Below, piece after piece: positions 1 through 26,015 of a DNA stretch of 56,958 nucleotides (position 1 is its first letter; every line of letters begins with the position of its first letter). The position numbers and the translations under genes are program-made. This DNA is from Thermoplasmata archaeon (lineage in GTDB: Archaea > Thermoplasmatota > Thermoplasmata > RBG-16-68-12 > JAFNFQ01), in the NCBI GenBank assembly GCA_041489255.1, contig JBGPQV010000021.1, positions 1 through 56,958 on the forward strand, in the 5' to 3' direction. The notes beneath the pieces are model-generated. The model ran no database searches, was not told where the DNA came from, and saw only the letters and a list, made by a program, of their open reading frames with translations.

Positions 1-523
1 GATTTCTACGGACTCCCGTGCGGCAAATCTTTAGAAGTCTCGGAGGCATCACTTTCTCCCCCTGGCCATAATGACCCCCTCCGGTCTGGAAATAAATGCC
101 GACGTCCCAGATATCCGAGCCGCGGGCCAAGACATGCACCTTTGGCCCCGGGCAAGTCCGGACGGAAACCACGGACTCGGTCGCTTGGTCCGAAGATTCC
201 GGAGATCCTTAAATCGCTCTCAGGAAGCTATGTCACGATCTCGGGGAGTGCCGGAGGATCCTCCCCGGGGCCGCCCCTCGTCCTCGGGCGTGTCCTGAGC
301 TCCGAGTGAGTCACCTGGAATCATTGAAGATCCTTCCGAGGCTCGGTTCCGATGTTGAATATCGAGGGACGGGGGGAAGCCAATAGGGAGAAGCGGAAAG
401 CTTGACCTAAGAGCGAGTATGCACATGAATGTCTTACCCGATGTTCTCAGAACCGCCGCTCCATTTCCCCCATTGCCGTAGCTCTCAATTTCAATGTTCC
501 ACGCGAATTGTGCATAATCTGTT

Positions 524-3508
524 CTAGCGTGAGTTGGCCAAGCCCTCCAATTTCTCACGAATGGCCTCATGCATTAGGCCAACTAGCGCTTCTGCATCCC
601 CTGTGTTCAGGCCTAGGACCTGGAGAAGTCCCACGTCTATTTGCTTCCTCGGGCCAAACTTATGGCTGAATTGATCAAGAAAACTCGGCCATTCGACGTC
701 CTGGAATCTTTCGAAGATCTGAAGCAACCTTTCGCGCTGAGATTTGGACAGCTTCCTGGGGTCGAGCATCGGCAGCTTGTTCAACACTTTCTTGTCAAGT
801 CGTCCCCATGAACCCTCAGTGACTGTCCGCTCAGCCAGCAGGTTGATGAGATAACACGAACTGTTGGCCCATAGAGCCAGAATCTTCTCCTCATCAACCT
901 TAGTTCCGCGAAAGCCATACAGATCGCCTGCCACAAATACTGGGTCAGAGGTTACACATGCCAGGAGGCACATGCCCGGAGTCACTATATTCCCCTTATA
1001 GGATACCATGAGTCTGGAATGATCGGATGCCGTTTTCTTCTCCCAATCGCGCTTCAGCAATTTTGACTTCTCATGAGCTGCTTCACCGTAGACATGATTG
1101 AGCAGGGGCTCAATGTGGCGGCTAAATCTGCGGACGGTCATATCCACAATCTCGTCGGCATTCAGCTTGTTGACGCCTGCAAACCGTCTCAAGTACGGGA
1201 TGGTTTCTCGGACGGGAAGATTAAAGGTTTGCCCATCGCTTATATCCTCTATCTGGATTATTCCATGCTTTCGACCTACTACAACCATGCGGTCGTGTTC
1301 CTTATGTGTCCTCTCTTTGGTCGATGAGAACAGGATGGCTGCTCCACCATATGCTTTGAGGCCATGACCAGTCTCTTCAGGGGAATCCTTGAACACTCGG
1401 AAAGCCTTTCCGATAAAGGCCCGCCATCCATTACGCTTAAAAACAAGCTCTGTAGATGCAATAAACGGAACATTGAGGACTTTCTCCAGTTTCTTCATGC
1501 TGACGGAAAAAGCGTGCGACAGGCCTACCACAAGCTTTGGCAGCGTACTATTCTTGAACAGCAATTCTGATTGCTCTTCTTCCCGAACGATGAAGAGATC
1601 ATTCGGTGGCGGGACATGCCCATCCCGTAGTTGACTCGCTAAGGCCTTCATTCGGATTAGATCTTCATTGCTCCAATGATGCGGTCCACGTTTCAGGCCA
1701 ATCAGCTTGAACTTATGATTTGGATTAGGGGTCCTCTTTTCCGCAACCAGCAAGATTTCCGTGATGTGCGTGTCGTCGGAGAATGCGCAGCCGTCGATGC
1801 CTGCGACGATGTACAGGATGGAGTAGTGCTGATTGAGGAAATTCACGATCGGCTCGAAATACTTTCCTGAGAAGGTGGTGAGAGGTAATACTGCTGCCAG
1901 CCGTCCGCCCGTTTCAAGAAACATATCTGCCAAAAGGATGAATGGAATTTGCAGGCTCCAGCGTCCCTCGAGACAACGCCTGTACTTGCCGTTATCGTTG
2001 AACGATAGCTCTATCGTTCGTCTATAGGGAAGTGCCATGTTGCTGCAACTTGTGAATGGAGGATTCGTGATGACGAGGTCTACCTTGTGAAGTTGAAATG
2101 GCTTTCTGTCCTTCTCTTCGCCAAGATTCACTGTGCCCGCAGTAGCATACGCTTGAGGGGCGAGTTCGACTCGGCCTTGTTCATTGAAACCCTCGAGTTT
2201 TCTTTGCTTGAAACCCTCGCGTATTATAGTCGTGGCCACATCAACCATGTCTCCAGGTTTCTTGGTCGTACTGTCTTCAACGCCGATTCGGACTTCATTC
2301 GTGAATATCAATGGCTCTTGAAGCGCCAAATGGACTGCCGCCAAGTGCGCCACAAATGCCATTACATCAATCCCTGTCAGATCTTCTTCTACAAACCTGC
2401 GATGGATTTCAGGAATTTCATCTTGATTCTCAAGTAGGTCCTTCTTTCTTCTATAGGCTGCAACAAGCAGCGTGCCACTGCCGCATGCAGGATCAAGAAC
2501 CTGCGCATCAGTCTTGTCAACCGCTAGGCGGGCCAGAAAATCCGCCGATGCAGGCATCGTGAAAAACGCTCCCAATGGCTTTCTGAAGCTGAGAGGAATT
2601 AGTTGATGAAACACATTCCCAATAATGTCCCTATTGCTTCCTAATCCTGGGATTAGTGCTTTGATGGCATTCACAACTTTGAGGGCACCATTCTGGCCAA
2701 CTTCCCCCTCAAGGCATGTGCAAACGTCGACCCCAAAAATCGGCCTGTAATTCCTGCCGAGGACGCGATCAAAGTACTTCGACTTGATAATGCTGGGATT
2801 CGATGCGTCCGCCAATTCGATCGGGTCATAGAGCTTTGCCTCCGCGAGGATTCCGTAGAAGAGAGTTTGATTAACGAGGAGATAGCCTGCAGCCCTGCGC
2901 AATGCTCCGCTGATTTCATCTTGGTCTAACTCGTAAGCCAAAACTGAATCAAAGAAATCCTTGCCTCCGAATACCGCCTTCAAACGGTTGTCACTTACTC
3001 CGACGAGTGCGCTCGAAATCTCATTGACAGCTTGAGACAGTACTCTAATTGCTGAGACATCGGCAGGCTCAATCTCCTTAAGTGCTTCCTCCCATTTGCC
3101 CATCACGATATCCTGAATCTTGTTCGCAATTGCTTCTAGAGACTCAAGGCTCCAGCTATGCGCCATGTGATGCCTGTTCGCTAAGGTCCAGAGTATATTG
3201 CGATCCTTTGCCGTCTTGGCGTATACGACGGCGAAGACTTCTCCGAGAATTGTTGTTTCCCCTATCAAGGTTTGATACTCTTGAGCACTCGCAACCGCCT
3301 CACCCTCCTTTTCCTTCCCTTGCTTTGCGCTAATCAGATGCGTCTTGCCCCCGTACGCGAATGCACCGTCTGGTTTCCGCGGTCTGCCCTTAAGAATAGG
3401 GAAATGCCGTTCGAAATCCGCTTTGGAGAACCCAACATTATCAAGATGACCCAGCAGTCTCACGGTGAGTGTATTCTCTTTCGGATTACCCCCAGTTTGA
3501 GATTTCAT
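524..3508 (-). CDS. Type IIG-like fused restriction-modification enzyme (N6-adenine DNA methyltransferase with N-terminal PD-(D/E)xK-like region and C-terminal target-recognition region)
   Basis: Motif I VLDPACGSGTLL, motif IV NPPF, LGAFFT motif X, N-terminal RKPDG..LISAK..AQEY. Start uncertain: ATG 3508 (MKSQ) preferred, ORF is open to 3661. Confidence 0.85.
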   Translation of the reverse strand: MKSQTGGNPKENTLTVRLLGHLDNVGFSKADFERHFPILKGRPRKPDGAFAYGGKTHLISAKQGKEKEGEAVASAQEYQTLIGETTILGEVFAVVYAKTAKDRNILWTLANRHHMAHSWSLESLEAIANKIQDIVMGKWEEALKEIEPADVSAIRVLSQAVNEISSALVGVSDNRLKAVFGGKDFFDSVLAYELDQDEISGALRRAAGYLLVNQTLFYGILAEAKLYDPIELADASNPSIIKSKYFDRVLGRNYRPIFGVDVCTCLEGEVGQNGALKVVNAIKALIPGLGSNRDIIGNVFHQLIPLSFRKPLGAFFTMPASADFLARLAVDKTDAQVLDPACGSGTLLVAAYRRKKDLLENQDEIPEIHRRFVEEDLTGIDVMAFVAHLAAVHLALQEPLIFTNEVRIGVEDSTTKKPGDMVDVATTIIREGFKQRKLEGFNEQGRVELAPQAYATAGTVNLGEEKDRKPFQLHKVDLVITNPPFTSCSNMALPYRRTIELSFNDNGKYRRCLEGRWSLQIPFILLADMFLETGGRLAAVLPLTTFSGKYFEPIVNFLNQHYSILYIVAGIDGCAFSDDTHITEILLVAEKRTPNPNHKFKLIGLKRGPHHWSNEDLIRMKALASQLRDGHVPPPNDLFIVREEEQSELLFKNSTLPKLVVGLSHAFSVSMKKLEKVLNVPFIASTELVFKRNGWRAFIGKAFRVFKDSPEETGHGLKAYGGAAILFSSTKERTHKEHDRMVVVGRKHGIIQIEDISDGQTFNLPVRETIPYLRRFAGVNKLNADEIVDMTVRRFSRHIEPLLNHVYGEAAHEKSKLLKRDWEKKTASDHSRLMVSYKGNIVTPGMCLLACVTSDPVFVAGDLYGFRGTKVDEEKILALWANSSCYLINLLAERTVTEGSWGRLDKKVLNKLPMLDPRKLSKSQRERLLQIFERFQDVEWPSFLDQFSHKFGPRKQIDVGLLQVLGLNTGDAEALVGLMHEAIREKLEGLANSR

Positions 3509-3856
3509 CCCTTCGGGGATAAGAGCGACGGGCTTATCGGCTTTTCGGAAAGGTGTACGCAATGAACTCCGGACTACGTTCTGGTCAGAATCAGCGTTTT
3601 CATCGATGATCAGGTTCTTTCTCATATCAAATATCAATTGAACTATGGGCAATCCGTCCATCAGAAGATGAAACCATTCATTTGAACTGCGATTGGATGT
3701 ATCAGGCAGCCTTGTTTATACACGGTGTGATAGGCCATGTTGCCAACCCACACGCAATAAATGCGGCACTTAACTCGACCCCGGCGTTCGCGTTTGAGTT
3801 TGTGCACAGGATTATTAAGCGGAGCCGATCCGCCGTGAGTTGCGATTGCTGGATTT

Positions 3857-3930
3857 TCCAGTCATCAATATCTATTAATCCCCTCCCCTCCTACACCTTC
3901 CCCGCATGCACCCCAGTCAGCGCATCTACT
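3857..3930 (+). repeat. 74-bp imperfect direct repeat, copy 1
   Basis: tccagtcatcaatatctattaatcccctcccctcctacaccttccccgcatgcaccccagtcagcgcatctact; 68/74 identical to 7106..7179, ungapped. Confidence 0.95.
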
Positions 3931-3974
3931 TCTTCAAAATTCCCAACCCCAAAATACATTGCCGAATTGACGGC

Positions 3975-3992
3975 ATGCTCTTATAACAGCAT
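3975..3992 (+). promoter_or_regulatory. TATA-like box (CTTATAAC) flanked by a short inverted repeat ATGCT/AGCAT; putative promoter/operator of the TM-SMC operon
   Basis: ATGCT-CTTATAAC-AGCAT, about 25 nt upstream of GTG 4009 (leaderless spacing). Confidence 0.4.
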
Positions 3993-4008
3993 ACCCTTAC
4001 ACGAGACC

Positions 4009-4674
4009 GTGGCTTCGGATGGTACCGGTTTGTCTGCTTTTGGCGGGGAAGTAATCGCGCCCGCATTCTTATTCACCATTTGTCTAACCATCATGATATT
4101 CTATCCGGCCGGACTGCAAATCCTTTCGGTCGAGGGATTCTCCATGATCGTCGTCACATTCATCTCTTGCCTGGTCATTGAACGAATCAACAGCAATAGA
4201 GAGATGAGTCGAAGAATCGGAGTGTTTCTCCTAGGGAGATTCTATAGAAAGGAGGACCGCCGTTTCAGGGAGAAATTAAAATCGCGACAGAATGCTGAGA
4301 GCTTTACGGATACAGAGAGACCTCTGGCCTACATCTATGAAAAAATCATGAACGACGGCGATAGACGTCAAGTAGATAAAATGGAATTGCGAGCTAGGCG
4401 TCACTTCAATTTCATCATTGCTACCCTGCTATTGTTAGTCCTTGATGTGGCATTTATAATTCTATATCTTGGGATTGGTGTCAATCTCGTAGTTGAACGC
4501 TTTCTCTGGAATGCACTAGGCTCGCTATTGGCACTTTTCGTGCTCATGACGTCTTATTATTCGTTTGGGGATACGCTTAAGGAGTTGACCGCCATTTATC
4601 TTCAATGCGTTATGAGGGGACAGAATGATTGCGAGGGAATCAGTCGAATCGATTGCGAAGGAACAAGGAATTGA
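4009..4674 (+). CDS. Hypothetical 4-TM membrane protein (candidate defence effector)
   Basis: Four hydrophobic stretches (VIAPAFLFTICLTIMIFY; FSMIVVTFISCLVI; FNFIIATLLLLVLDVAFIILYLGI; FLWNALGSLLALFVLM) around a charged loop. Start set at GTG 4009 because the longer ORF from 3682 runs through the repeat. Overlaps the next gene by 50 bp. Confidence 0.7.
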   Translation: MASDGTGLSAFGGEVIAPAFLFTICLTIMIFYPAGLQILSVEGFSMIVVTFISCLVIERINSNREMSRRIGVFLLGRFYRKEDRRFREKLKSRQNAESFTDTERPLAYIYEKIMNDGDRRQVDKMELRARRHFNFIIATLLLLVLDVAFIILYLGIGVNLVVERFLWNALGSLLALFVLMTSYYSFGDTLKELTAIYLQCVMRGQNDCEGISRIDCEGTRN

Positions 4675-6502
4675 AGGGAGCGAATGGTGGCGGGCGTTTT
4701 CTCCGAAGTTGCATGTGCTTCTGGACAAGGCCCCCTTTTCATCCAAACCTTTCAGGATTTCTGAGTTTCGATTTCATCGATTCTCAAGCCCAGAGTATTG
4801 TGGGGTCACGAAGGCGGTAGGAGGAGGGAGCTGCCTTATCTGGGGCGAACACAGAACCGGCAAGAGTACGACCTATGATGCATTTCTTTTCGCGCTTGCA
4901 GGGAAAAAGGGCCCACTGCGAGAGGAATTCGGAAAGTACTCCTTAGAACTCGATTTATCGAATGGATCAGATAAGATTAGCATCATGCGCGAGTACCAAA
5001 AGGGACTCACGGTGAAATGTGAGGGAAATGCATATCAAGGAGACGAAGCGACTTCGATTCTCGAACAAAGGCTGGGCATACACCCTGACGATTTCCTGAT
5101 ATTGAGGGCCATGACTCTACCTCAACGAAGTGAAACAGACTCTCTTTTCCTGCGTGCGAGTCAACCTAGAGAACTGCAGCAGATAGTGCTCTCAATAGGC
5201 GCAGATAGACGCCGATCGTCCATCTTGAAGCTTCTTGAGGAGGAATTCAGGGAAGTGGAAAACGAATTGACTCGGAATACGGCGCAAACGACTGATATGA
5301 TGGCACAAAGAGAAGAAACCAAAGACAGGATAGGCTTCACGGAATATCACATCAAGGAAATGAAGGATTTCTCGTCGAAGTATGAATCAGGTGAACTGCG
5401 CGAAATCGTCAACATTGTCAACAAGCAACCCGAAGTGGAGAAGGAATTGAGGGAATTGGAGAATGCTTTCGAAGAATTATGGAAAGAAGACGCCCAGTTG
5501 AGAAAGAGAATCGGTGTTGCAGGCCTAAGATATAAAGACAAGAAGCCAGAGGAGGTTGTCCAAGACGTTCTATCAAGAATAGTGTGTCCAATCTGCGAGC
5601 ATGGGATAGATCTCACGAAGATGGAGAATCGGCTTCAAGGCCTGACTAGATGTCCTATGTGCAATGAATCGTATAGCTGGGAACTCCTCAAGAAGGCAGA
5701 GGCGAAGATTGAAGAGGCAAAAAATATCGCCAATTGGAGAAAGCGACTCGGCGAGATAACGCTCGAGAAGACAAGGATTGAAAAGCGAAAGAAGGATTTG
5801 GGGATTAAGTGTTCCCACGAAACCGTGAGACGGATTGTCAGAAACGGATGTAAGGAATCGGATTTCAAGGAGATTATCGGACGGATTGAGCGAGCTGAAA
5901 GCCTATTGGCGTCGGATTCCGATTCGGTCAAGACGCAGAGCCGCAACATAAAAGAATTGAAAGATGAACGCCGGGATTTAGACAATCGGATGATTGTGAT
6001 ACAATCCCTGAAAGATCGAACTGTGAAACCGACTGAATTGGCCGAAGTTATACGAAGTCTAATGGACAACATGAACAAGCACTACACAGCTATTACGGCC
6101 AGTTCTACGAGATTGGAATATAAGGAAGGCGAGATTTACCTCGTTGAAGATTATGGTGGATTTATATCCTCCAGAAACGCGAATGACAGATACAATGTGA
6201 GCGTTGGCGAAAGACGCGCCCTTGATGCATCCTTCCTATTATCGGTACTAGCGCTGAATCAAGAGCGCCGTTATTCCAACATTGAATTCGCCATCCTGGA
6301 TGACCCAAGCGAGGGGATTCTCGGATCTTGGAAGGGGAATCTGATTGCGCTCTTGGGAGAAGCATCAAGGAGCTTCCAATTAATATGCACAACTTACGAT
6401 GATGCCCTCAATAAAGCTGGTTTTGAAAACAAGGCTGCATTGATGAAGCAGATCAAACTTCCTCAGTTCATCGAACCTTCTCCCTCAACAGCTTCTTCTT
6501 GA
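4625..6502 (+). CDS. Rad50/SbcC/SMC-like coiled-coil ABC ATPase
   Basis: Walker A GEHRTGKST, Q-loop LPQ, long coiled coils with CPIC and CPMC at the apex, signature VSVGERR, Walker B FAILDDP. Confidence 0.9.
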   Translation: MIARESVESIAKEQGIEGSEWWRAFSPKLHVLLDKAPFSSKPFRISEFRFHRFSSPEYCGVTKAVGGGSCLIWGEHRTGKSTTYDAFLFALAGKKGPLREEFGKYSLELDLSNGSDKISIMREYQKGLTVKCEGNAYQGDEATSILEQRLGIHPDDFLILRAMTLPQRSETDSLFLRASQPRELQQIVLSIGADRRRSSILKLLEEEFREVENELTRNTAQTTDMMAQREETKDRIGFTEYHIKEMKDFSSKYESGELREIVNIVNKQPEVEKELRELENAFEELWKEDAQLRKRIGVAGLRYKDKKPEEVVQDVLSRIVCPICEHGIDLTKMENRLQGLTRCPMCNESYSWELLKKAEAKIEEAKNIANWRKRLGEITLEKTRIEKRKKDLGIKCSHETVRRIVRNGCKESDFKEIIGRIERAESLLASDSDSVKTQSRNIKELKDERRDLDNRMIVIQSLKDRTVKPTELAEVIRSLMDNMNKHYTAITASSTRLEYKEGEIYLVEDYGGFISSRNANDRYNVSVGERRALDASFLLSVLALNQERRYSNIEFAILDDPSEGILGSWKGNLIALLGEASRSFQLICTTYDDALNKAGFENKAALMKQIKLPQFIEPSPSTASS

Positions 6503-6944
6503 CGTCAACTACGCGTTCATCCTTAAGAATTTGAGAGAGTGATGATCCTTTGTGGGATGCTAATTCGTCTTCGATTTCTGCGTTAACCTCCTCATACGAC
6601 GGTTCCAAGGAGAGGCGGGCTCTGACTCCTTGAATGAATCTCCTGCCGAAGGTCGTAATGCCAAATGACCTGTTCGTCTCATCCCCCGTATCTCGGTAGA
6701 TTCCGAGCATGAAGTTAGTTTCAAGGTCGTAGGAGGCACCAGGATCTCTTGGCCCGAAGTATCCGCGCTCAAAGTCCATGGATTGCAGGACGGCATGTTT
6801 GCCCTTCAACCTTCTACTGCAGAAGAATATCATTTTCTCCAATCTCGTTACACCATCTACGTCCCCCGACTCGTTAGCAGTTCCGTCCACAACTGAGTAT
6901 ATCCATAGTATATCTTGAAACGAAACCATCGATTGGTGATTCAT
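6468..6944 (-). CDS. YwgA / SocA-Panacea-like winged-helix protein
   Basis: GVTRLEKMIF...F..GYFGP...FGITTFG resembles the GxT(R/K)LQK..F / YGP / Y.LT..G pattern of this family. Confidence 0.6.
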   Translation of the reverse strand: MNHQSMVSFQDILWIYSVVDGTANESGDVDGVTRLEKMIFFCSRRLKGKHAVLQSMDFERGYFGPRDPGASYDLETNFMLGIYRDTGDETNRSFGITTFGRRFIQGVRARLSLEPSYEEVNAEIEDELASHKGSSLSQILKDERVVDVKKKLLREKVR

Positions 6945-7105
6945 GCAATGGGTCTAAATAGGTTACGGAGCAGAAAAAAATGGACAGCCACCTGTGCAAC
7001 ACACAATTCTGAGCAAATATCGGACACTTGGTTTCAACTATAAGTCTGAAATCTAACGGGATCTCACCCCGATTGGACTGGGCGGTTGGACGAGGACAAG
7101 GACGG

Positions 7106-7179
7106 TCCAATCATCAACATCTATCAATCCCCTCCCCTCCTACACCTCCCCCGCATGCACCCGAGTCAGCGCATCCACT
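7106..7179 (+). repeat. 74-bp imperfect direct repeat, copy 2
   Basis: tccaatcatcaacatctatcaatcccctcccctcctacacctcccccgcatgcacccgagtcagcgcatccact; 6 mismatches to 3857..3930. Confidence 0.95.
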
Positions 7180-7449
7180 GCACCAAGAGCGAGAAGCTGA
7201 AGGCTCAGAACTCGCCACTTCATCGCTGACCGACAGGATGCTGTCCGTTGCGGCCAAGGACGCCTGCCCGATGGCTCTGACGATCTGGTCATCGCATCGA
7301 CGCAGCTCATCCCCCTCCTTTCCGCGATGATCCTTCTTGCAGACAGCGGTGAGGTCGAATCAGCACCGCCATCTAGGCGCGCAAGCACAATCGTGCGAAC
7401 TCGCAGATACATCGAGGGAGCCTCTATCTGTTATGCGAAATGCCCTTCG

Positions 7450-7508
7450 GAAACGTATAAATACACACGGGTTTATCGGCGGGTTACTTCACTATCTCGG
7501 AGGAGGTA
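7450..7508 (+). promoter_or_regulatory. BRE/TATA promoter and Shine-Dalgarno of the surface protein gene
   Basis: gaaacgTATAAATA at about 7450-7463; GGAGGAGGT just upstream of TTG 7512. Confidence 0.55.
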
Positions 7509-7511
7509 GAC

Positions 7512-10436
7512 TTGAGACTAAGAACTGGAGTTTTCGTTAGCTTGATGACAGCGGCCATGCTAATGTCTCTGCTGGCGCCCCTGACTCGGGCATTCATACC
7601 CGAGCCGTACGAGCTTTATGGGGTCGCAAAGCTCGACACCGGCGTGGTTCTTGATGATGGCTCGCCAATAAGGTCCTTTGTCGACGGAGTCGACTACTCG
7701 AACAAGACGTCAGTGTTCAGCCGACCGGGCAACACCGACGGGTACTTCGACATCGACACCTACGGCAACTACAGAACGAACGCAACCGACCCGGGCACTC
7801 CCTGGATAAAAGAGGGCGCCGATGACAACGAACCGATCATGTACAGTTGGGGCGATTTCAGCAACAACACGCAGATCGGCGGCCCGTCACAGCCCTGGCT
7901 ACAGGCCAAAGTGTTCCAGGAAACGCACGACTGGCAGACCGGTCTGCCGCCGCAGGCGGGAGACCTGAACCTGGCGCCCGACGCCCAGCAGCCACCGCTG
8001 CTGAAGATCTACAGCGTGACGACGAACAGCACGTATGCGCCACTTACTGACTACGTCTGGCTCTGCAACCCGACCAACCAGAACGTCGACGCTTCGCAGT
8101 TCTACCTGCAGAAGGATGTCCTTGGGGATGTCAACGGACCGCAGGTGCAGGTGCCCGTCGGTACCATTGGACCCTACAAGAAGTACTTCGTCGACACGGC
8201 CAGTCTGGACTACTTCAACGAGGCAGGCGACAACCTGAAGCTCGTCTGGAAGAACACGGCCAGTCCGACCGCGGATTTTGGCGGCAATGACATCGTGCTG
8301 GACAGGGTCGAGTTCAACAAGTCCGCCGGTGGTGCGCTCAACTGGGAGCCGGGAAACACGATAATGAACAATGAGCCCGCGCCAGACAGAGGTTTCCAGA
8401 TCAACAGATCCTCGATCTGCCGCGACACGAACTCAGTGCAGCAAGATTTCTTCATCGAGGTCGAAACAAGGTTGAACTTCCGGCCGACAGCGCCGGACCC
8501 GGTGTGCATCGAGGGTCTGTGCAACTGGAATGTCGACAGCAGGCTGTTCCACCTCGTCAAGCTGACCAACTTCCGTATCAATTGGACGCATCATGACCCG
8601 GATGGCGATCCCCAAACTCAGGCCAACATCCGCATATCAACTGCACCTAACGGCGTTGGTGTGATGTGGAATGGCAATGTGGTCGGAGCGACTGCGTTCA
8701 TTGATTATACCGGCCTCCCATTGCTGAAGGGCAACAATTATTGCTTCTCTGTGCAGACCAAGGACGCCGCTCCCGTCTTCGGCCCATGGGGAGAACTGTG
8801 CTTCCGCACCAACGGTTTGCCGGCACCGATAAACAAGCTTTGGCCATCCAACGGCTGGCAGACTTCTCCCAAATCCGACCAACAAGTGTGGTGGACTCTG
8901 GCCACTGACCCGGACCCGGGCGATCTTCTCAACTACACCTGGAAAGTCAACACGACGGCATCCATGGTCGCTCCGCTCTACAGCGGCACGACCACCACCA
9001 ACACCTCGACCCCGTTCCTGACACTCCCGACATCGACCTACTTCTGGTGTGTAAACACCAGTGACGGGTGGGAGTGGTTGAATGGCTGCGGGTCGACTTG
9101 GCAGTTCACCACCTCGACGCCCCCGCCAGCTCCGACTGCGACGGACCTGGAGGTCGACGGCCATGCGTTTGCCGACGCATACCTGCAGCACGTCACGAAC
9201 CGCGTCCCCGTGTTCACATGGACGTTCAACCCGACGACTGGCAGGACGCAGACAGCCTTCCATATCCAGGTCTACCGGCAAACAGGTCCCCTCCTGATGT
9301 GGGAACTCAACAACACCGGAGCTGGCGGTGACCTGTCAACGGCCACCTACAACTCGGACAGCACCGGCACCGCCCTCGTGAACGGCACGTGCTACTACTT
9401 CCAGGTGAAGGTCCGGGACAGCCTCAGCCCGCAGCTATGGAGCGTCGACTGGGGCACGCCGCTGGACTTCTGCATCAATACGCCGCCACCGACGCCGACG
9501 CCTCTCGCCCCGGCGGATGACAGCGCCCGGCTTGTGGGTTCGACTATCCTCTACTGGAGCACCGAGATTGATGCGGACACGGGCGACGTCGTCACGTACG
9601 ATTACTGCATCGACACCGCCATTGATCCGCCATACCCGACCTGCAACATCGTCCACACCACGGCAACCGCCAACAACTCGGCCGCCTTCACGACTGTCGC
9701 GAACAACTACATCTGGGCCGTGAGGGCTTACGACAGCTACGAATATTCCGCCTGGAGCACGATTTGGAACTTCACGGCGTACACAGCGCCGACCAACACC
9801 GCACCGACGATCACCATCACCGCGCCCGCTGGTGGAGAACGCCTCCTGCAGGGGAGCACGTTCACAATAAGATGGACGATGCACGATGACCAAACCGCCG
9901 ATTCCGCCCTTGTCGTTGTCGTGACGTACAGCGTTGGCGGTGGGGCACCAATCACGATAGCCACGAACTGGGTCGGGGTAACATCCGGCTCGTGGACGGT
10001 GCCGTCCGATGTGGACTCGTCCAACGTGAGGATAACCGCCACGGTCACCGACACGGGTGGCCTGACTGGCACGAGCCAGTCGCCGCAGTTCACGATCTAC
10101 AAAGAGCCCGCGGGGGAATTCCCACTGATGTGGGTGCTCCTCATAATCATCATCGTGGTGGTTTTGGCGATCGTCCTCCTACTCTTGATGAAACGCAGGA
10201 AGCCGAAGGAGGAGGAAGAGGCGGCCGCGCCGCCAGCGGCAGAGGAGGCACCGCCAGCCGAGGAAGAGGAGATGGTCGTGGAGGAGGCACCAGCGCCCCC
10301 GCCAAAGGCCGCCCCGAAGCCGGCAGTGGTACCAGCCGCCACAAAGGCCCCGACGAAGACCAAGGAATGCGCGAGTTGCGGCACGATAGTGAGCGTGACG
10401 GACAAAGAATGCTTCATGTGCGGGGCCAAGCTGTAG
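7512..10436 (+). CDS. Large membrane-anchored cell-surface protein (signal peptide, lamin-tail-like and FN3/Ig-like modules, C-terminal TM, Pro/Ala/Glu linker, zinc ribbon)
   Basis: N-terminal hydrophobic signal, four W..D.D...Y.W/F.V modules, many N-x-S/T sequons, TM WVLLIIIIVVVLAIVLLLLM-KRRK, terminal CASCG..CFMCG. Confidence 0.85.
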   Translation: MRLRTGVFVSLMTAAMLMSLLAPLTRAFIPEPYELYGVAKLDTGVVLDDGSPIRSFVDGVDYSNKTSVFSRPGNTDGYFDIDTYGNYRTNATDPGTPWIKEGADDNEPIMYSWGDFSNNTQIGGPSQPWLQAKVFQETHDWQTGLPPQAGDLNLAPDAQQPPLLKIYSVTTNSTYAPLTDYVWLCNPTNQNVDASQFYLQKDVLGDVNGPQVQVPVGTIGPYKKYFVDTASLDYFNEAGDNLKLVWKNTASPTADFGGNDIVLDRVEFNKSAGGALNWEPGNTIMNNEPAPDRGFQINRSSICRDTNSVQQDFFIEVETRLNFRPTAPDPVCIEGLCNWNVDSRLFHLVKLTNFRINWTHHDPDGDPQTQANIRISTAPNGVGVMWNGNVVGATAFIDYTGLPLLKGNNYCFSVQTKDAAPVFGPWGELCFRTNGLPAPINKLWPSNGWQTSPKSDQQVWWTLATDPDPGDLLNYTWKVNTTASMVAPLYSGTTTTNTSTPFLTLPTSTYFWCVNTSDGWEWLNGCGSTWQFTTSTPPPAPTATDLEVDGHAFADAYLQHVTNRVPVFTWTFNPTTGRTQTAFHIQVYRQTGPLLMWELNNTGAGGDLSTATYNSDSTGTALVNGTCYYFQVKVRDSLSPQLWSVDWGTPLDFCINTPPPTPTPLAPADDSARLVGSTILYWSTEIDADTGDVVTYDYCIDTAIDPPYPTCNIVHTTATANNSAAFTTVANNYIWAVRAYDSYEYSAWSTIWNFTAYTAPTNTAPTITITAPAGGERLLQGSTFTIRWTMHDDQTADSALVVVVTYSVGGGAPITIATNWVGVTSGSWTVPSDVDSSNVRITATVTDTGGLTGTSQSPQFTIYKEPAGEFPLMWVLLIIIIVVVLAIVLLLLMKRRKPKEEEEAAAPPAAEEAPPAEEEEMVVEEAPAPPPKAAPKPAVVPAATKAPTKTKECASCGTIVSVTDKECFMCGAKL

Positions 10437-10447
10437 GCCCTGCACCC

Positions 10448-10472
10448 TTTCCATTTTTCTTTCTTTTCATTC
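10448..10472 (+). terminator. Oligo-T archaeal terminator
   Basis: tttccatttttctttcttttcatt just after the stop codon. Confidence 0.5.
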
Positions 10473-10529
10473 CCCCAGCGAGAGCCATCTGGAAAGTCTA
10501 TTAACCCCCGCCCCTCTTCGCCCCCCGAG

Positions 10530-12278
10530 ATGAAGAAGAGCGAGGACTTCGGCGAATGGTACATCGAGGTCATCGACAAGGCGAACCTCAGCGACAAGAG
10601 GTACCCAATCAAGGGGATGAACGTCTGGACGCCTTACGGCTGGGCTGTGATGAGGCGCATTGACGAGTTCATCCGCCAGGAGATGGCGGCAACTGGCCAC
10701 GACGAGGTCTGCTTCCCCCTGCTCATCCCCGAGACGGAGTTCAAGAAGGAGTCGAAGCACATCAAGGGGTTCGAGGAGGGCGTCTTCTGGGTCACCCACG
10801 CGGGGCTCAACCCCCTCGACGTCAAGCTGCTCCTGAGACCGACCAGCGAGACGGCGATGTATCCCATGTTCGCGCTCTGGATCCGGTCGCACGCGGACCT
10901 GCCGTTGAAGATCTACCAGATAGTGAACGTGTTCAGGTACGAGACGAAGGTGACCAGGGCGTTCATGCGCGTCAGGGAGATACACTTCTTCGAATCACAC
11001 ACATGCCACGCGACCTTCGAGGAGGCCGAGGCGCAAATCCGCGAGGACCTGGAGATAATGGACCGGGTGGCGCGGCGCCTTGCATTGCCGTACCTGTTGA
11101 TGAGGAGGCCCGAGTGGGACAAGTTTCCCGGGGCGTTCTACACGACGGCGGTGGACGTCTACGTCGCGGGGGCCGGCAGGACCCTGCAGGTCGGCGGCAT
11201 ACACCAGTACAAGGATAACTTCGCGCGCGCCTACGACGTGAAGTTCGAGAAGGATATCTCCCAAGCGGACTTCGCGGCCTACATCGCCAGACTCCTCGAG
11301 AGTATGGGCTACGACGACATCAGGTTCAGGGCGGTCTCACCCGACGCGGTCCTGGCCAGGCCTGACGTCGAGGCCAAGAAAGGCGGGAAGCGCGTGGCGG
11401 TGGAGGTGAAGCGCAGGATCAAGGATGATGCGGACGGGAAGGCCCTGGAAGCGATCTTCGACCAGATGAAGGATCCATCGATCCATCACATCCTGATAAC
11501 CCACGACGTGCCGAAGGAGATGGCGGAGCGACTGACGGCCAAAGGCGTCGAAATCTGGAACGAGACGAAGGTGGCCGAGATGGCCAAGGCGGCGGGGCAG
11601 GAGCCGCTCGTATTCCACCAGTACGTGCACCAGACCACCTACGGGATGAGCGAGAGGCTCATCGGGACGATAGTGGCGGTGCACGGCGATGATAAAGGGC
11701 TGGTCTTCCCGCCGGACGTCGCCCCGACGCAGATCGTGGTCGTCCCGATCCCCGAGAAGGGCAGGCAGGAGATCATCGCAGAGGAGTCGCGGAGGCTCAG
11801 GGACGAGCTTGCCGGCATCTTCCGCGTGCACCTCGACGACAGGGACATCCGCCCAGGCAGCAAGTACTACGAATGGGAGGCGAAGGGCGTCCCCCTCAGG
11901 ATCGAGCTGGGACCGAAGGACCTGCAGAAGGACGTCGTCACTGTCGTTCGGAGGGACACGTCGATAAGGTCGACGTTGCCGAGGAAAGACTTGGTCTCCA
12001 GCGTGGCCAAGCTCCTCGACGCGATACAGGGCGGCATGTGGAAGCGCGAGGAAAAGAGGCTGATAGACTCGATCGTGGACGTAAAGCACATGTCCGGGTT
12101 CAAAGAGGCGCTCAACCGCGCGTCCTGGTGCGGCTCAGAGGAATGCGGGCACGAAATCGAGAACAAGACCGGGATGAGCGTCCTCGGCACTCCCGCCAAA
12201 GAAGAGAAGCCGGAGGGGCCGTGCGTAGTCTGCGGCAAGCCGGCGAAGCTGGTCATCTATGTGGCCAAGACCTTCTAG
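10530..12278 (+). CDS. proS: Prolyl-tRNA synthetase (archaeal/eukaryotic type) with an in-frame ~120-aa nuclease-like insertion
   Basis: LRPTSET, motif 2 FRYETK..FMRVREI, motif 3 QTTYGMSERLIG, anticodon-binding domain, C-terminal WCGSEEC/CVVCG zinc domain; 582 aa versus the usual ~460-480. Confidence 0.97.
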   Translation: MKKSEDFGEWYIEVIDKANLSDKRYPIKGMNVWTPYGWAVMRRIDEFIRQEMAATGHDEVCFPLLIPETEFKKESKHIKGFEEGVFWVTHAGLNPLDVKLLLRPTSETAMYPMFALWIRSHADLPLKIYQIVNVFRYETKVTRAFMRVREIHFFESHTCHATFEEAEAQIREDLEIMDRVARRLALPYLLMRRPEWDKFPGAFYTTAVDVYVAGAGRTLQVGGIHQYKDNFARAYDVKFEKDISQADFAAYIARLLESMGYDDIRFRAVSPDAVLARPDVEAKKGGKRVAVEVKRRIKDDADGKALEAIFDQMKDPSIHHILITHDVPKEMAERLTAKGVEIWNETKVAEMAKAAGQEPLVFHQYVHQTTYGMSERLIGTIVAVHGDDKGLVFPPDVAPTQIVVVPIPEKGRQEIIAEESRRLRDELAGIFRVHLDDRDIRPGSKYYEWEAKGVPLRIELGPKDLQKDVVTVVRRDTSIRSTLPRKDLVSSVAKLLDAIQGGMWKREEKRLIDSIVDVKHMSGFKEALNRASWCGSEECGHEIENKTGMSVLGTPAKEEKPEGPCVVCGKPAKLVIYVAKTF

Positions 12279-12487
12279 GGCTTCCTGTAGAGAAGCATCC
12301 CCGTAAGGCCGAACCCCACGAGAACTACCGTCACCGCGTAGACGCCGATGTTCTCCGTCGTGAGCGGGTTCCAGGTCCCGTAGAAGATGCCCCACGAGAA
12401 GTAGAACAGTATGCCCAGGAAAAGGAGCAGGGTGTAGAAGGCGAATGCGAGCTTGCGTGTGAAGACCGACTCCTCTTCCTTAGGCAT
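12275..12487 (-). CDS. Small 2-TM membrane protein
   Basis: 70 aa with two hydrophobic helices and host-like codon use. Confidence 0.7.
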   Translation of the reverse strand: MPKEEESVFTRKLAFAFYTLLLFLGILFYFSWGIFYGTWNPLTTENIGVYAVTVVLVGFGLTGMLLYRKP

Positions 12488-12551
12488 GTGGCTGGAGCAA
12501 ATAGGGGGCGCATAAAAAGCTTTGCTGGAGAGTGTCGCGCGCCGGTAATCA

Positions 12552-13364
12552 TCAGGTCTTACGGCCCTTCCTCGGCCTGAACACCCTCACCAGCCGCCCC
12601 TTGAACCCGGCAAATGCCCTGGCGGTCCTGGGGAACTTCGAGGGGTTCTCCTCGGCGTAGTAGAGGAACGCGAGCAGGAGGAAGAAGATCGCGCCGGTCC
12701 CGAACAGATAGAACGGCCACTCAGGGATTATGTCCTTGACGCCGAACGCCGTGTCGGGCAGGATGCCGTCGATGCCGCCCAGGCGCGTGAGGTTCACCTG
12801 ACCCACGCATCCCGGCGATACGCACCCCGCGCCCTCCTGGGTCGCCCACATGAACTGCTCCTTCGACCAGTATCCTGGAGACGCCATCTTCGCCGGAACG
12901 CCGTCGAGCACGAATGTAAGCCAGAACCTCACCAGGTAGGAACCTTGAGAGAAGATCCTTCCATGGGGCATATCCGAGGAGGTGAGGACGGTGAGATTCA
13001 CCCTTGTGGACGAATTGCGGGCAAGCGGCGCCAGCGGAGTGATCTTCAACTCCCTTCCAGGGCTCGGGGCGCCCTCGAACTTGGGATATCCGTGCGTCCA
13101 GGTGGAATCGAGCATCATGGAGGTGTCTTGCTCGACGTATTGATAAATGCTGGCGTTCAGGACGACATTGGTCATCGAGTCATTGTACGGATTCGTCAGG
13201 TCGAAGGCGATCACTCCCTGCTGACCCGCGTCTAGGGCGGGCGTCTCGAAAGTGCCGTACATCAGTATCTTGTTCACCAGGCCGGGGTCGCGCACGTCCG
13301 CGACCGCGTTGGAAGAGATTGCGAGAATCGCGAGGAGAGCGATGCACAGGGCTGTAGCCCTCAT
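12552..13364 (-). CDS. Secreted, C-terminally membrane-anchored hypothetical protein
   Basis: Signal peptide MRATALCIALLAILAISSNAVA, Ig-like body, C-terminal TM followed by a basic tail. Confidence 0.75.
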   Translation of the reverse strand: MRATALCIALLAILAISSNAVADVRDPGLVNKILMYGTFETPALDAGQQGVIAFDLTNPYNDSMTNVVLNASIYQYVEQDTSMMLDSTWTHGYPKFEGAPSPGRELKITPLAPLARNSSTRVNLTVLTSSDMPHGRIFSQGSYLVRFWLTFVLDGVPAKMASPGYWSKEQFMWATQEGAGCVSPGCVGQVNLTRLGGIDGILPDTAFGVKDIIPEWPFYLFGTGAIFFLLLAFLYYAEENPSKFPRTARAFAGFKGRLVRVFRPRKGRKT

Positions 13365-13421
13365 TGCCGTTCGCTAAGGGCAGCGGCCTCATATATTTTG
13401 TGAGTAATACTGGCGGCTGAG

Positions 13422-14453
13422 ATGAGAGACCCGAGCTTGGTTGCTGTTGTGCCGAAGAAAAACGCGGAGAGGTTGCGGAAGCATCTCCGCCTGGCGCGCC
13501 TCCTTGACTCGGGTAGGAAGATCGTTGTGCGCGGGGCAACGGTGCTCATCCCGATCTCCCGCCATCCGGGGAATCTCACTGAGTTTGCCGCCGAGGTTGC
13601 GGAGGATACTGGACTCAGGGAAAGAGAGACGCGGTCCACACCGTTCCAACTCATCACGGACGCGGTTGCGGTGGAACCAAGGCTGAAGCGGTTCCTACCG
13701 GACAAGTGGGAGATGATCGGGGACGTTCTGGTGCTCAAGCTGCCGCGCGAGCTGGACGACTGCAAGGTGGCGGTCGCGGAGGGATACGCGCGAGTGCTCG
13801 GCGCGAAGGCGGTCCTTCAGGACGTTGCGGGAATCGAAGGGGATTGGCGGGTCCCGCAAGTCGAGAAGATATGGGGCGGGAGCACGGAGACGGTCCATCT
13901 GGCGGACGGTGTCAGGTTCAAGCTCGATGCCGCCAAGGTGATGTTCTCATCCGGCAACCTGCCTGAAAGGATGCGCATGGCCCGCATTTCGCGACCCGGG
14001 GAGACCGTGGTCGACATGTTTTCGGGAATAGGCTATTTCGCCATACCGATGGCCGTCCACTCCCGCCCGGAGAGGATCTATGCTTGTGAGGTCAACCCAG
14101 TCGCTTTCCACTACCTCGAAGAGAATGCGAGAATCAACCGTGTCGAGGACTTGACGCCGTTGTTGGGCGACTGCAGGGAAACAGCCCCGGAAGGCGTCGC
14201 CGATAGAATCATCATGGGCTACCTAAGAGCGCAAGGTTTCTTGGACAAGGCGATGATGATCGCCGGGCCAGAGGCAGTCCTGCACTATCACGAAGCCTGC
14301 CCCAACGAGCTCATCGGCACGCGCCCGTGGTCCACGGTGAGAGAGGCGGCGGAGAAAGCCGGAAGGAGCATCGAGCAGCTTCATCTCCAACGTCTCAAGT
14401 CTTACGCTCCCGGCGTGTCCCACATCGTCCTCGATGCAAGAGTCTCTCGATGA
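13422..14453 (+). CDS. taw2: Taw2/TYW2 (Trm5/Met-10+ family) SAM-dependent tRNA wyosine-modifying transferase
   Basis: MFSSGNLPERMRM, VVDMFSGIGYFAIP, EVNP, ADRIIMGY, LHYHE. Confidence 0.8.
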   Translation: MRDPSLVAVVPKKNAERLRKHLRLARLLDSGRKIVVRGATVLIPISRHPGNLTEFAAEVAEDTGLRERETRSTPFQLITDAVAVEPRLKRFLPDKWEMIGDVLVLKLPRELDDCKVAVAEGYARVLGAKAVLQDVAGIEGDWRVPQVEKIWGGSTETVHLADGVRFKLDAAKVMFSSGNLPERMRMARISRPGETVVDMFSGIGYFAIPMAVHSRPERIYACEVNPVAFHYLEENARINRVEDLTPLLGDCRETAPEGVADRIIMGYLRAQGFLDKAMMIAGPEAVLHYHEACPNELIGTRPWSTVREAAEKAGRSIEQLHLQRLKSYAPGVSHIVLDARVSR

Positions 14454-25766: not shown

Positions 25767-25841
25767 GGACGGGTGGCCTAGACAGGATATGGCACCAGTT
25801 TCCTAAACTGGCGGTCCCGGGTTCGAATCCCGGCCCGTCCG
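25767..25841 (+). tRNA. tRNA-Arg(CCT), intronless, CCA not encoded
   Basis: Acceptor GGACGGG/CCCGTCC, anticodon arm CCAGT-TTCCTAA-ACTGG, T arm CCGGG-TTCGAAT-CCCGG, followed by TTTTT; TATA-like cttaag about 35 nt upstream. Confidence 0.95.
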
Positions 25842-26015
25842 CTTTTTCCTGAACCGATGTCAAATGCAAGTTTCTCAGTGCTTCGAGTCTTCCGACCGGA
25901 CCTTTCAGATTCTCTCCGCTAAGTTTAATATCTCCCTCTTCGGTGGCTGCACTCCTGTCTCAGTTCGGCAAGCGGGAGCACGTAGGATATATCTCCATGA
26001 AAGAAGTGGTCTTCG

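Follow-up and report, generated by a model that had tools for sequence, protein, structure and literature searches.

Archaeal defence genes cluster in variable islands, and to our knowledge it is mostly unknown how such islands are built. In streptococcal tandem accretion, with its cis-mobilizable elements (CIMEs), segments devoid of an integrase lie between direct copies of an att site and are stacked head to tail at a single place in the chromosome, and the integrase is presumed to be supplied in trans. Chromosomal integrons comprise IntI, attI and attC arrays in which small cassettes point one way, are separated by similar repeats of about 100 nt and carry no recombinase of their own, while a promoter sits at the array edge; the gene for IntI, a tyrosine recombinase, adjoins the array on its attI side, and attC sites are imperfect palindromes with R''/L'' and L'/R' boxes, folding in single-stranded form. 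According to the published account, dusA-associated islands insert at the start of a housekeeping gene, whose 5' end they replace with sequence of their own, leave imperfect direct repeats (consensus around 21 bp), occur in bacteria and carry their own DAI tyrosine integrase beside the site (Farrugia et al. 2015, PMC4482086). For the Prochlorococcus tycheposons and tRNA-marked islands, the portion of the preprint used here describes repeated integration that pushes older elements inward, partial target copies that are scattered, and cargo of an adaptive or defensive nature; the targets are tRNA genes and many of the elements retain integrases (bioRxiv 10.1101/2020.12.28.424599). Archaeal integrated elements can also use the ends of protein genes as att sites, with tandem reuse of a site being possible, and in the section of the survey considered here all 14 thaumarchaeal protein-gene cases are 3'-distal and involve elements whose integration genes can be recognised (Krupovic et al. 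2019, PMC6563490).

The locus described here resides on contig JBGPQV010000021.1 of a Thermoplasmata archaeon (assembly GCA_041489255.1); the whole stretch of 56,958 nt is termed the window. Its central feature is a segment without an integrase between two direct, co-oriented, att-like repeat copies derived from the start of coaBC, and in this respect, as well as in the co-orientation per contig of the 17 related sites of the genome, it resembles a CIME. It differs in that no integrase-bearing element with this att was detected in the source genome, 19 metagenome flanks, viral contigs or 75 coaBC-bearing genomes, in that the att corresponds to a promoter and gene start rather than to a 3' end, and in that the att itself has spread to several loci. 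As far as the dusA-associated islands are described in the material cited, the likeness lies in the use of a 5'-end target, here that of coaBC, with a replacement 5' end and promoter, and in the truncated copies upstream of the intact coaBC on contig C7; by contrast, the site in the window is a transplanted copy that no longer precedes coaBC, the host is an archaeon, no DAI-family integrase was found, the cassettes of 0.8-7.5 kb stand in arrays, and the site is present at secondary loci. Repeated integration at one site, scattered partial target copies and adaptive or defensive cargo are features held in common with the tycheposons as portrayed in the cited portion of the preprint, whereas the target here is the start of a protein gene and none of the cassettes examined contains an integrase. 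With integrons the locus shares one-way cassette arrays with similar repeats, cassettes that lack a recombinase, and a promoter at the edge, but no IntI lies beside any array, the repeats derive from a gene and do not look like attC hairpins, and the cassettes are larger and often multigenic, with genes on either strand. The archaeal elements in protein genes, within the section of the survey referred to, are similar in using a protein-gene end as att and in reusing the site in tandem; the thaumarchaeal cases differ from the present one in that here a 5' end is used and the search for integration genes had a negative result.

The repeat search delimited the two copies in the window, both on the plus strand and in direct orientation, as 81-nt segments (3857-3937 and 7106-7186) with 89% identity and a start-to-start distance of 3249 nt (Table 1). 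An earlier note on this DNA, made from the letters of the window, had reported 68 identical positions out of 74 for 3857-3930 versus 7106-7179, and blastn returned the same value; a C-rich 21-mer occurs exactly twice in the window as compared to 0.00 times expected from 100 shuffles. The shared minus-strand peptide end and stop codon noted for both copies are present, and the 90-aa ORF that the second of them closes is listed among the window ORFs. The statement that the repeats are not tRNA fragments also holds: the sole tRNA in the window is a tRNA-Arg at 25767-25842 (ARAGORN), and the repeat aligns to coaBC, which rules out a tRNA origin. Nor was a recombinase, said to be missing between the copies, detected by family matches in the ORFs scanned between and beside them, be it in the three main ORFs (E ≤ 0.01) or in another 14 ORFs, 59-194 aa long, from the region 3272-7540 and its surroundings (E ≤ 0.1). 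The observation of a repeat pair is therewith confirmed, while the picture of just two copies needs extension: the pair is real, but it is part of a family with at least 17 sites in the genome.

Table 1. Positions of the repeat copies, cores, arms and genes discussed in the text. Plain coordinates refer to the window (contig C21); contig names (C) refer to the source genome unless preceded by G001, and locus names (L) are added in brackets.
Feature	Location	Strand	Remarks
Left chromosomal flank of the island	1..435		with C40 syntenic with G001:C81
1045-aa N6-adenine methyltransferase	524..3661	-	type IIG / MmeI-Eco57I kind; leftmost cargo of the island
Repeat copy 1	3857..3937	+	coaBC promoter-like part (3857-3904) and coaBC codons 1-8
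Cassette between copies	3931..7105	+	3249-bp unit with one repeat copy; no recombinase family match
194-aa ORF	4090..4674	+	hydrophobic/membrane; start codon uncertain, open frame from 3682; no family match
625-aa SMC/Rad50-like ATPase	4625..6502	+	best PADLOC match LmuB
158-aa ORF	6468..6944	-	no family match
Repeat copy 2	7106..7203	+	coaBC promoter-like part and codons 1-16
90-aa ORF	7140..7412	-	within conserved non-coding leader between copy 2 and 974-aa gene
974-aa Ig-domain surface protein gene	7512..10436	+	fixed right neighbour of the copy 2 site
Core sites per contig (core scan)	C7 (3), C21 (2), C34 (4), C36 (3)	+	
Core sites per contig (core scan)	C3 (2)	-	
Core sites per contig (core scan)	C31, C6, C2 (1 each)	mixed	
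R-3 arm copies	C34 (L012) 8399-8575, 11215-11399		directly after core
R-3 arm copies	C36 (L011) 7588-7764; C2 (L015) 253187-253363		directly after core
R-3 arm copy	C3 (L010) 2404-2578	-	directly after core

The origin of the repeat became apparent from a plus-strand alignment of all genomic copies, in which approximately 49 nt ending in an A/T-rich box are followed by an ATG and the codons MHPSQRIYCTKSEKLKGK. An intact gene for a CoaBC protein of 398 aa (Pfam DFP, 9e-39; Flavoprotein, 4e-28) is located at C7:8081-9277, and the repeat at C7:8032-8165 spans the 49 nt upstream of this gene plus its first 28 codons. The same contig has two truncated copies, at 2579 and 4402, ahead of the complete coaBC gene with its own copy beginning at 8032. 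In five genomes from other genera of the order, similarity to the repeat (75-78%) does not begin before the ATG, and the coding part is therefore native to coaBC. The upstream part of about 49 nt could represent a BRE/TATA-type promoter of a nearly leaderless mRNA. As judged from these alignments, the window repeats are shown to be spare copies of the promoter and the first codons of the essential gene coaBC. Counted from the ATG, copy 1 retains -49 to about +26, its likeness to coaBC stopping around 3930, and copy 2 retains -49 to +50, with likeness to coaBC and to the other copies extending to 7203. An apparently split coaBC in another genome (G027) turned out to be a scaffold gap of N.

The sites have in common a core of 22 nt that starts one base before the ATG (CATGCACCCSAGTCAGCGCRTC; 3905-3926 in copy 1 and 7154-7175 in copy 2) and includes the imperfect dyad ATGCAC-N8-GCGCAT. 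When the source genome (G000; 2.74 Mb in 41 contigs, 96% complete, with the window as contig C21) was scanned with up to three mismatches allowed, 17 core sites emerged versus a single match for the reversed control; the sole other genome of the genus (G001) yielded four versus none, along with six matches to the repeat. Orientation of the sites is uniform within each of the eight contigs concerned, and all 17 lie no more than 8.4 kb from a contig end, a placement that fits assembly breaking at repeats combined with strain-variable DNA. The promoter-type copies have 74-130 nt in common at 83-97% identity. In metagenomes the core scan retrieved 24 loci, several of which are overlapping pieces of one contig. 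The expansion of the sites appears to be specific to this genus, because in 12 out of 12 genomes from other genera no extra copies of their own coaBC start occur upstream of coaBC (3.6-15 kb upstream each); to judge by these genomes, it looks like a peculiarity of this genus. Further copies between other defence genes, for which a BLASTN search had been proposed as a way of recognizing a cassette array, do occur, with one orientation per contig. The concern that it might be a dispersed genome-wide element unrelated to cassette borders proved correct as to dispersal, yet incorrect as to the borders.

The cassettes, 0.8-7.5 kb in size and arranged in arrays, carry a broad range of defence-related genes. 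Sixteen of the 49 ORFs adjacent to sites match PADLOC models (E ≤ 1e-5), besides the methyltransferase and the LmuB-like gene of the window; three of the 49 stem from the end of contig C28, whose link to an array is putative. Type II methyltransferases and restriction enzymes, AbiEi/AbiEii, SoFic and a ThsB-like TIR protein are among the matches, and so are a DUF488 candidate, PDC-M11B, a CapP-like protein and SIR2. Cargo unrelated to defence is present as well and includes large surface proteins of the PKD/DUF7948 kind, along with a histidine kinase and its accompanying response regulators. In the window, the cassette has a G+C content of 45-48% versus 57-63% to its right. Its ATPase matches LmuB over model positions 28-590 of 611 (PADLOC, E 2.5e-16), and with Pfam only weakly AAA_23. 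Neither an LmuA effector nor an LmuC partner was recognized, the 194-aa and 158-aa ORFs matching no PADLOC, Pfam or NCBIfam model. As both neighbours of the ATPase match nothing, the cassette is named LmuB-like and not Lamassu. The methyltransferase gene is bounded on its right by copy 1, and at the left border of the island (near 435) there is neither a repeat copy nor a core site. The 974-aa gene on the other side has its own conserved TATAAATA at 7456-7463, which may serve as its promoter.

Comparison with relatives provided information on the history of the locus. The stretch 7161-14000 of the window is 91% identical to contig C62 of G001, which ends inside the repeat, and G001:C81 starts with the other half of it. 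On the left, window positions 1-208 match G001:C81:10282-10075 at 93%, and synteny, which continues with contig C40, ends near window position 435. Overlaps of up to 141 nt exist between contig ends, and it is C40 that joins the left end of the window. Between these common flanks, G000 has 6.7 kb of low G+C DNA encompassing the methyltransferase, copy 1, the hydrophobic ORF, the LmuB-like ATPase and the 158-aa ORF, and in G001 the place is taken by some 10 kb of unrelated genes, among them those for a Peptidase_M78/CapP-like protein, an adenylosuccinate-synthetase-like ATPase and DUF7002. The position of the copy 2 site is kept in G001 and in the metagenome loci L048, L049, L061 and L063, and the flanks of the slot are 79-93% identical among related sequences that differ in cargo.

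The metagenome locus L048, from a contig of 37.9 kb, is particularly instructive. On its reverse complement, 1-2022 corresponds to C34:6396-8420 (90%) and 2001-3496 to window 7154-8614 (84%), with nothing but the 22-nt core covered by both alignments. Here the C34 gene for a solute-binding/PKD protein adjoins the 974-aa gene with a single core in between, where G000 has an island consisting of C34 from 8399 onward and window 1-7153, with a sequence gap in between. These matches show L048 to carry an empty site with one core; a single repeat copy had been anticipated for relatives that lack the genes. In L049, L061 and L063 the window-type right arm is preceded by three other small cassettes. 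One of these sequences, L061 255-937, matches C7:2698-3380 (94%), but in L061 the window-type arm follows, while in G000 the segment is situated within the coaBC-proximal array; the alignment thus places one cassette at two loci in different strains. As a separate observation, C7 (L009) 3362-4522 and G001 C9 (L039) 9266-10426, both comprising a gene for a membrane protein of 255 aa and the following repeat, are 98.7% identical, as compared to 89.5% for the neighbouring coaBC of the two genomes, which suggests a recent exchange between species.

Further insight came from the sequences that border the core, which we term arms and grouped by likeness for 45 distinct sites; these come from G000, from portions of G001 and from the loci found in metagenomes. 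Left arms are mostly of the promoter type, and six or more mutually unrelated ones have their junction no further than 12 nt from a point just before the ATG. Right arms depart from coaBC at +22 (the R-3 arm), +26 (window copy 1), +29, +30, +44, +50 (the type of window copy 2), +56, +77, +86 to +102, +122 and +130, and some continue into the full coaBC gene. The R-3 arm of about 175 nt is preceded by four different left arms, i.e. L0 (twice), L5, L6 and that of the copy on C3, and the window-type right arm by L1, L5, L9 and L13. L5 is found before R-3 (C34:8399) and also before the window-type arm (L048), and arms of the L0 type before R-3 and before the coaBC arm (L065). What different arm types have in common is the core only, with merely 22-25 nt shared at the junctions of L5, L6 and L0 with R-3 and of L5 with the window-type arm; in a fourth combination, the promoter arm with R-3 at C34:12450, the likeness is weak and amounts to about 45 nt. 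Such a reassortment of arms around the core is what att sites would be expected to show when a site-specific recombinase exchanges them. Since numerous breakpoints fall beyond the core (-30, and from +26 to +130), other processes must also have acted; aberrant excision, deletion or homologous exchange may have shaped these copies.

R-3 itself is present in five copies plus one weak look-alike and contains a perfect stem of 9 bp, as well as part of the core in inverted form. The arm folds mildly better than shuffled sequences on both strands (z about -1.9), and no Rfam family was detected for the repeat or the R-3 arm on the array-bearing loci L009, L011 and L012. The idea of a bridge RNA of the IS110 kind was dismissed, as G000, at 96% completeness, has no Transposase_20 match.

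We favour the interpretation, at slightly better than even odds (roughly 0.55), that the window and its counterparts constitute an integrase-less cassette array that recombines at the core by means of a trans-acting enzyme encoded elsewhere. Copies of the coaBC start would serve as attachment sites, the 22-nt core being their working part, and window 3931-7105 would be a cassette without integrase between two such sites, with the copy 2 site, ahead of the 974-aa gene, acting as a secondary docking site that stays in place. Cassettes would enter, leave and shift among docking sites through recombination at the core, and the promoter-bearing arm would maintain the expression of coaBC whenever a cassette lands at the native site. 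Only tentatively do we go further and propose that the 22-bp site of the coaBC start has been copied to at least six other places in the chromosome, that each of these seeded a one-way array of mostly defence cassettes, and that all are served by a host recombinase in trans, perhaps of the Resolvase+Recombinase kind present in 72 of 79 genomes; this would make the system a multi-locus archaeal counterpart of an integron, built from unrelated parts.

Of the two interpretations put forward in the earlier note, the one of recombination sites in a cassette array mobilised in trans has gained support from the recurrence of the repeat at defence genes, the single copy in L048 and the strain-variable cargo, and the other, an integration scar in a gene 3' end, did not stand. 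In that other reading, the copies would be attL and attR of one element integrated in the 3' end of the minus-strand 90-aa gene, and it is true that on the minus strand each copy closes an open frame, the terminal peptide and the stop codon being identical. However, the repeat corresponds to the promoter and 5' end of coaBC on the opposite, plus strand, and it occurs in at least 17 copies rather than two. The 90-aa ORF has no family match in a profile search, just its last 22 or so codons recur elsewhere, where they overlap the coaBC fragment, and a 2-nt indel breaks its frame in two of four related sequences (L048 and L061). On these grounds the ORF is probably not a gene and we discarded the gene-end reading, the attL/attR pair being highly improbable. 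That all copies are inert relics of past rearrangements, maybe retained as spare promoters for downstream genes, is also unlikely, although the depth is even and variant joints are absent in four sequencing runs, copy 1 faces both plus-strand genes of the cassette and could drive them, and the site ahead of the 974-aa gene keeps its place in G000, G001 and four metagenome contigs. Relics of this kind are difficult to reconcile with slot cargo that differs among relatives with flanks 79-93% identical and with a cassette that is 94% identical at two loci; moreover, a co-oriented gene follows only four to five of the eight promoter-type copies in G000.

A possible, if less probable, alternative to recombination at the core by a trans-acting enzyme is homology alone: repeats of 75-130 nt would anchor general recombination, and circles would loop out and re-enter by single crossover, or islands would be replaced after DNA uptake, with neither a dedicated enzyme nor a core being involved. 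The extent and identity of the sequence common to promoter-type copies (74-130 nt, 83-97%) are in keeping with this, the contrast between C7:3362-4522 and coaBC in their identity to G001 (98.7% versus 89.5%) resembles block replacement, and breakpoints are scattered from -30 to +130. The absence of a recombinase at any site likewise speaks for homology and counts against the enzyme-based interpretation, as do, for the latter, the lack of an excision product or empty site in four public runs, the many breakpoints outside the core and the left border of the window island, where no site is present. Against homology stand the several junctions with just 22-25 nt in common (L5, L6 and L0 with R-3, L5 with the window-type arm) and the at least six unrelated left arms that end within 12 nt of the same point, which would not be expected from independent homology-driven events. 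These features lead us to infer that the exchange is site-specific rather than homology-driven.

If a trans-acting enzyme is indeed at work, the locus would exemplify an archaeal form of integron-like gene capture that uses a defined, roughly 22-bp site and might serve as a tool. If homology alone is responsible, a duplicated promoter fragment can multiply the island hotspots within one genome. Under either explanation, the joints of an island are visible at base resolution, with a short core from the start of an essential gene, reassorting arms, an empty site and a slot refilled in close relatives; the cargo ranges from restriction-modification and AbiE to Fic, TIR and LmuB-like genes, and the coaBC-start sites copied to other loci now appear to act as hotspots of their own.

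Which enzyme might act, and whether it is still active, was approached by profile searches and by inspection of public assemblies. A tyrosine recombinase close to the repeats, as envisaged in the earlier note, is not encoded in the window island; the four Phage_integrase (PF00589) matches in G000 are all located on different contigs or at distances above 100 kb, one being next to a tRNA-Leu gene, and no core-like sequence occurs within about 5 kb of these genes. In flanks of about 2 kb around 19 metagenome loci, 45 ORFs were compared with recombinase families and gave no match. In viral contigs, two patterns for the repeat gave zero and three matches, the three being unrelated AT-rich sequences, and the R-3 pattern gave none; with no true match to the repeat or R-3 there, we abandoned the idea of a viral or plasmid attP origin. 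Of 79 genomes of the order, 75 have coaBC, and in none of these is there an integrase or resolvase match on the coaBC contig in the vicinity of the gene: the one integrase match on this contig in G012 is 18 kb off on the 3' side, and in G077 integrase and resolvase matches are each more than 200 kb away from the gene. G000 possesses ten genes with a Resolvase domain, including two paralogous trios of Resolvase+Recombinase (serine recombinase) genes, and a single gene of this type, encoding about 300 aa, occurs in 72 of the 79 genomes. No copies of the repeat were found near the two trios, and their genes are only candidates for the trans-acting enzyme; further candidates are the conserved genes of about 300 aa at C4:77487 and C18:33425 and the tyrosine recombinase genes on C6 and C18. 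The trios are located at C28:14922-17953 (L099) and C25:26748-29662 (L100), are 70% identical to each other over 2.1 kb and have an orthologous trio in G001.

Present-day activity of the putative system was addressed with Logan contigs from four public sediment runs (X1, X2, X4 and X5). The contigs break at both repeat copies, none of them joins 3930 to 7180, and the loose contig ends are other copies of the repeat; depth in X1 is even on either side (13.2, 11.4 and 12.7). The contigs of these four runs speak neither for nor against present-day excision. Of the empty site and the circular junction that the earlier note had suggested looking for, neither appeared in these runs, and the single-core empty site came from the metagenome contig L048.

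Some additional observations concern the surroundings of the island and other mobile DNA in the genome. C18 (L092) has a tRNA-Leu(CAA) at 4297-4381 directly before a tyrosine recombinase gene, and the tRNA-sized stretch recurs five times in G001, which looks like an ordinary tRNA-targeting integrative element. On C40 (L090; 3.1 kb), an IS630-type transposase with DDE_3 and HTH domains is encoded at the contig end (2039-3115), and the 141-nt end of this contig overlaps both C2 and C28, rendering the path beyond ambiguous. In the left flank of the island, one X1 contig (depth 14.5) skips 129 nt of window 208-338 and has four other letters instead, and G001 is without the same stretch; this difference is a small indel polymorphism. 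To the right of the 974-aa gene, window 10530-12278 (plus strand) encodes an archaeal-type prolyl-tRNA synthetase with a Pfam Mrr_cat match (restriction-endonuclease fold; residues 242-351, E 1.2e-5) that has the class II core on one side and the anticodon-binding domain on the other.
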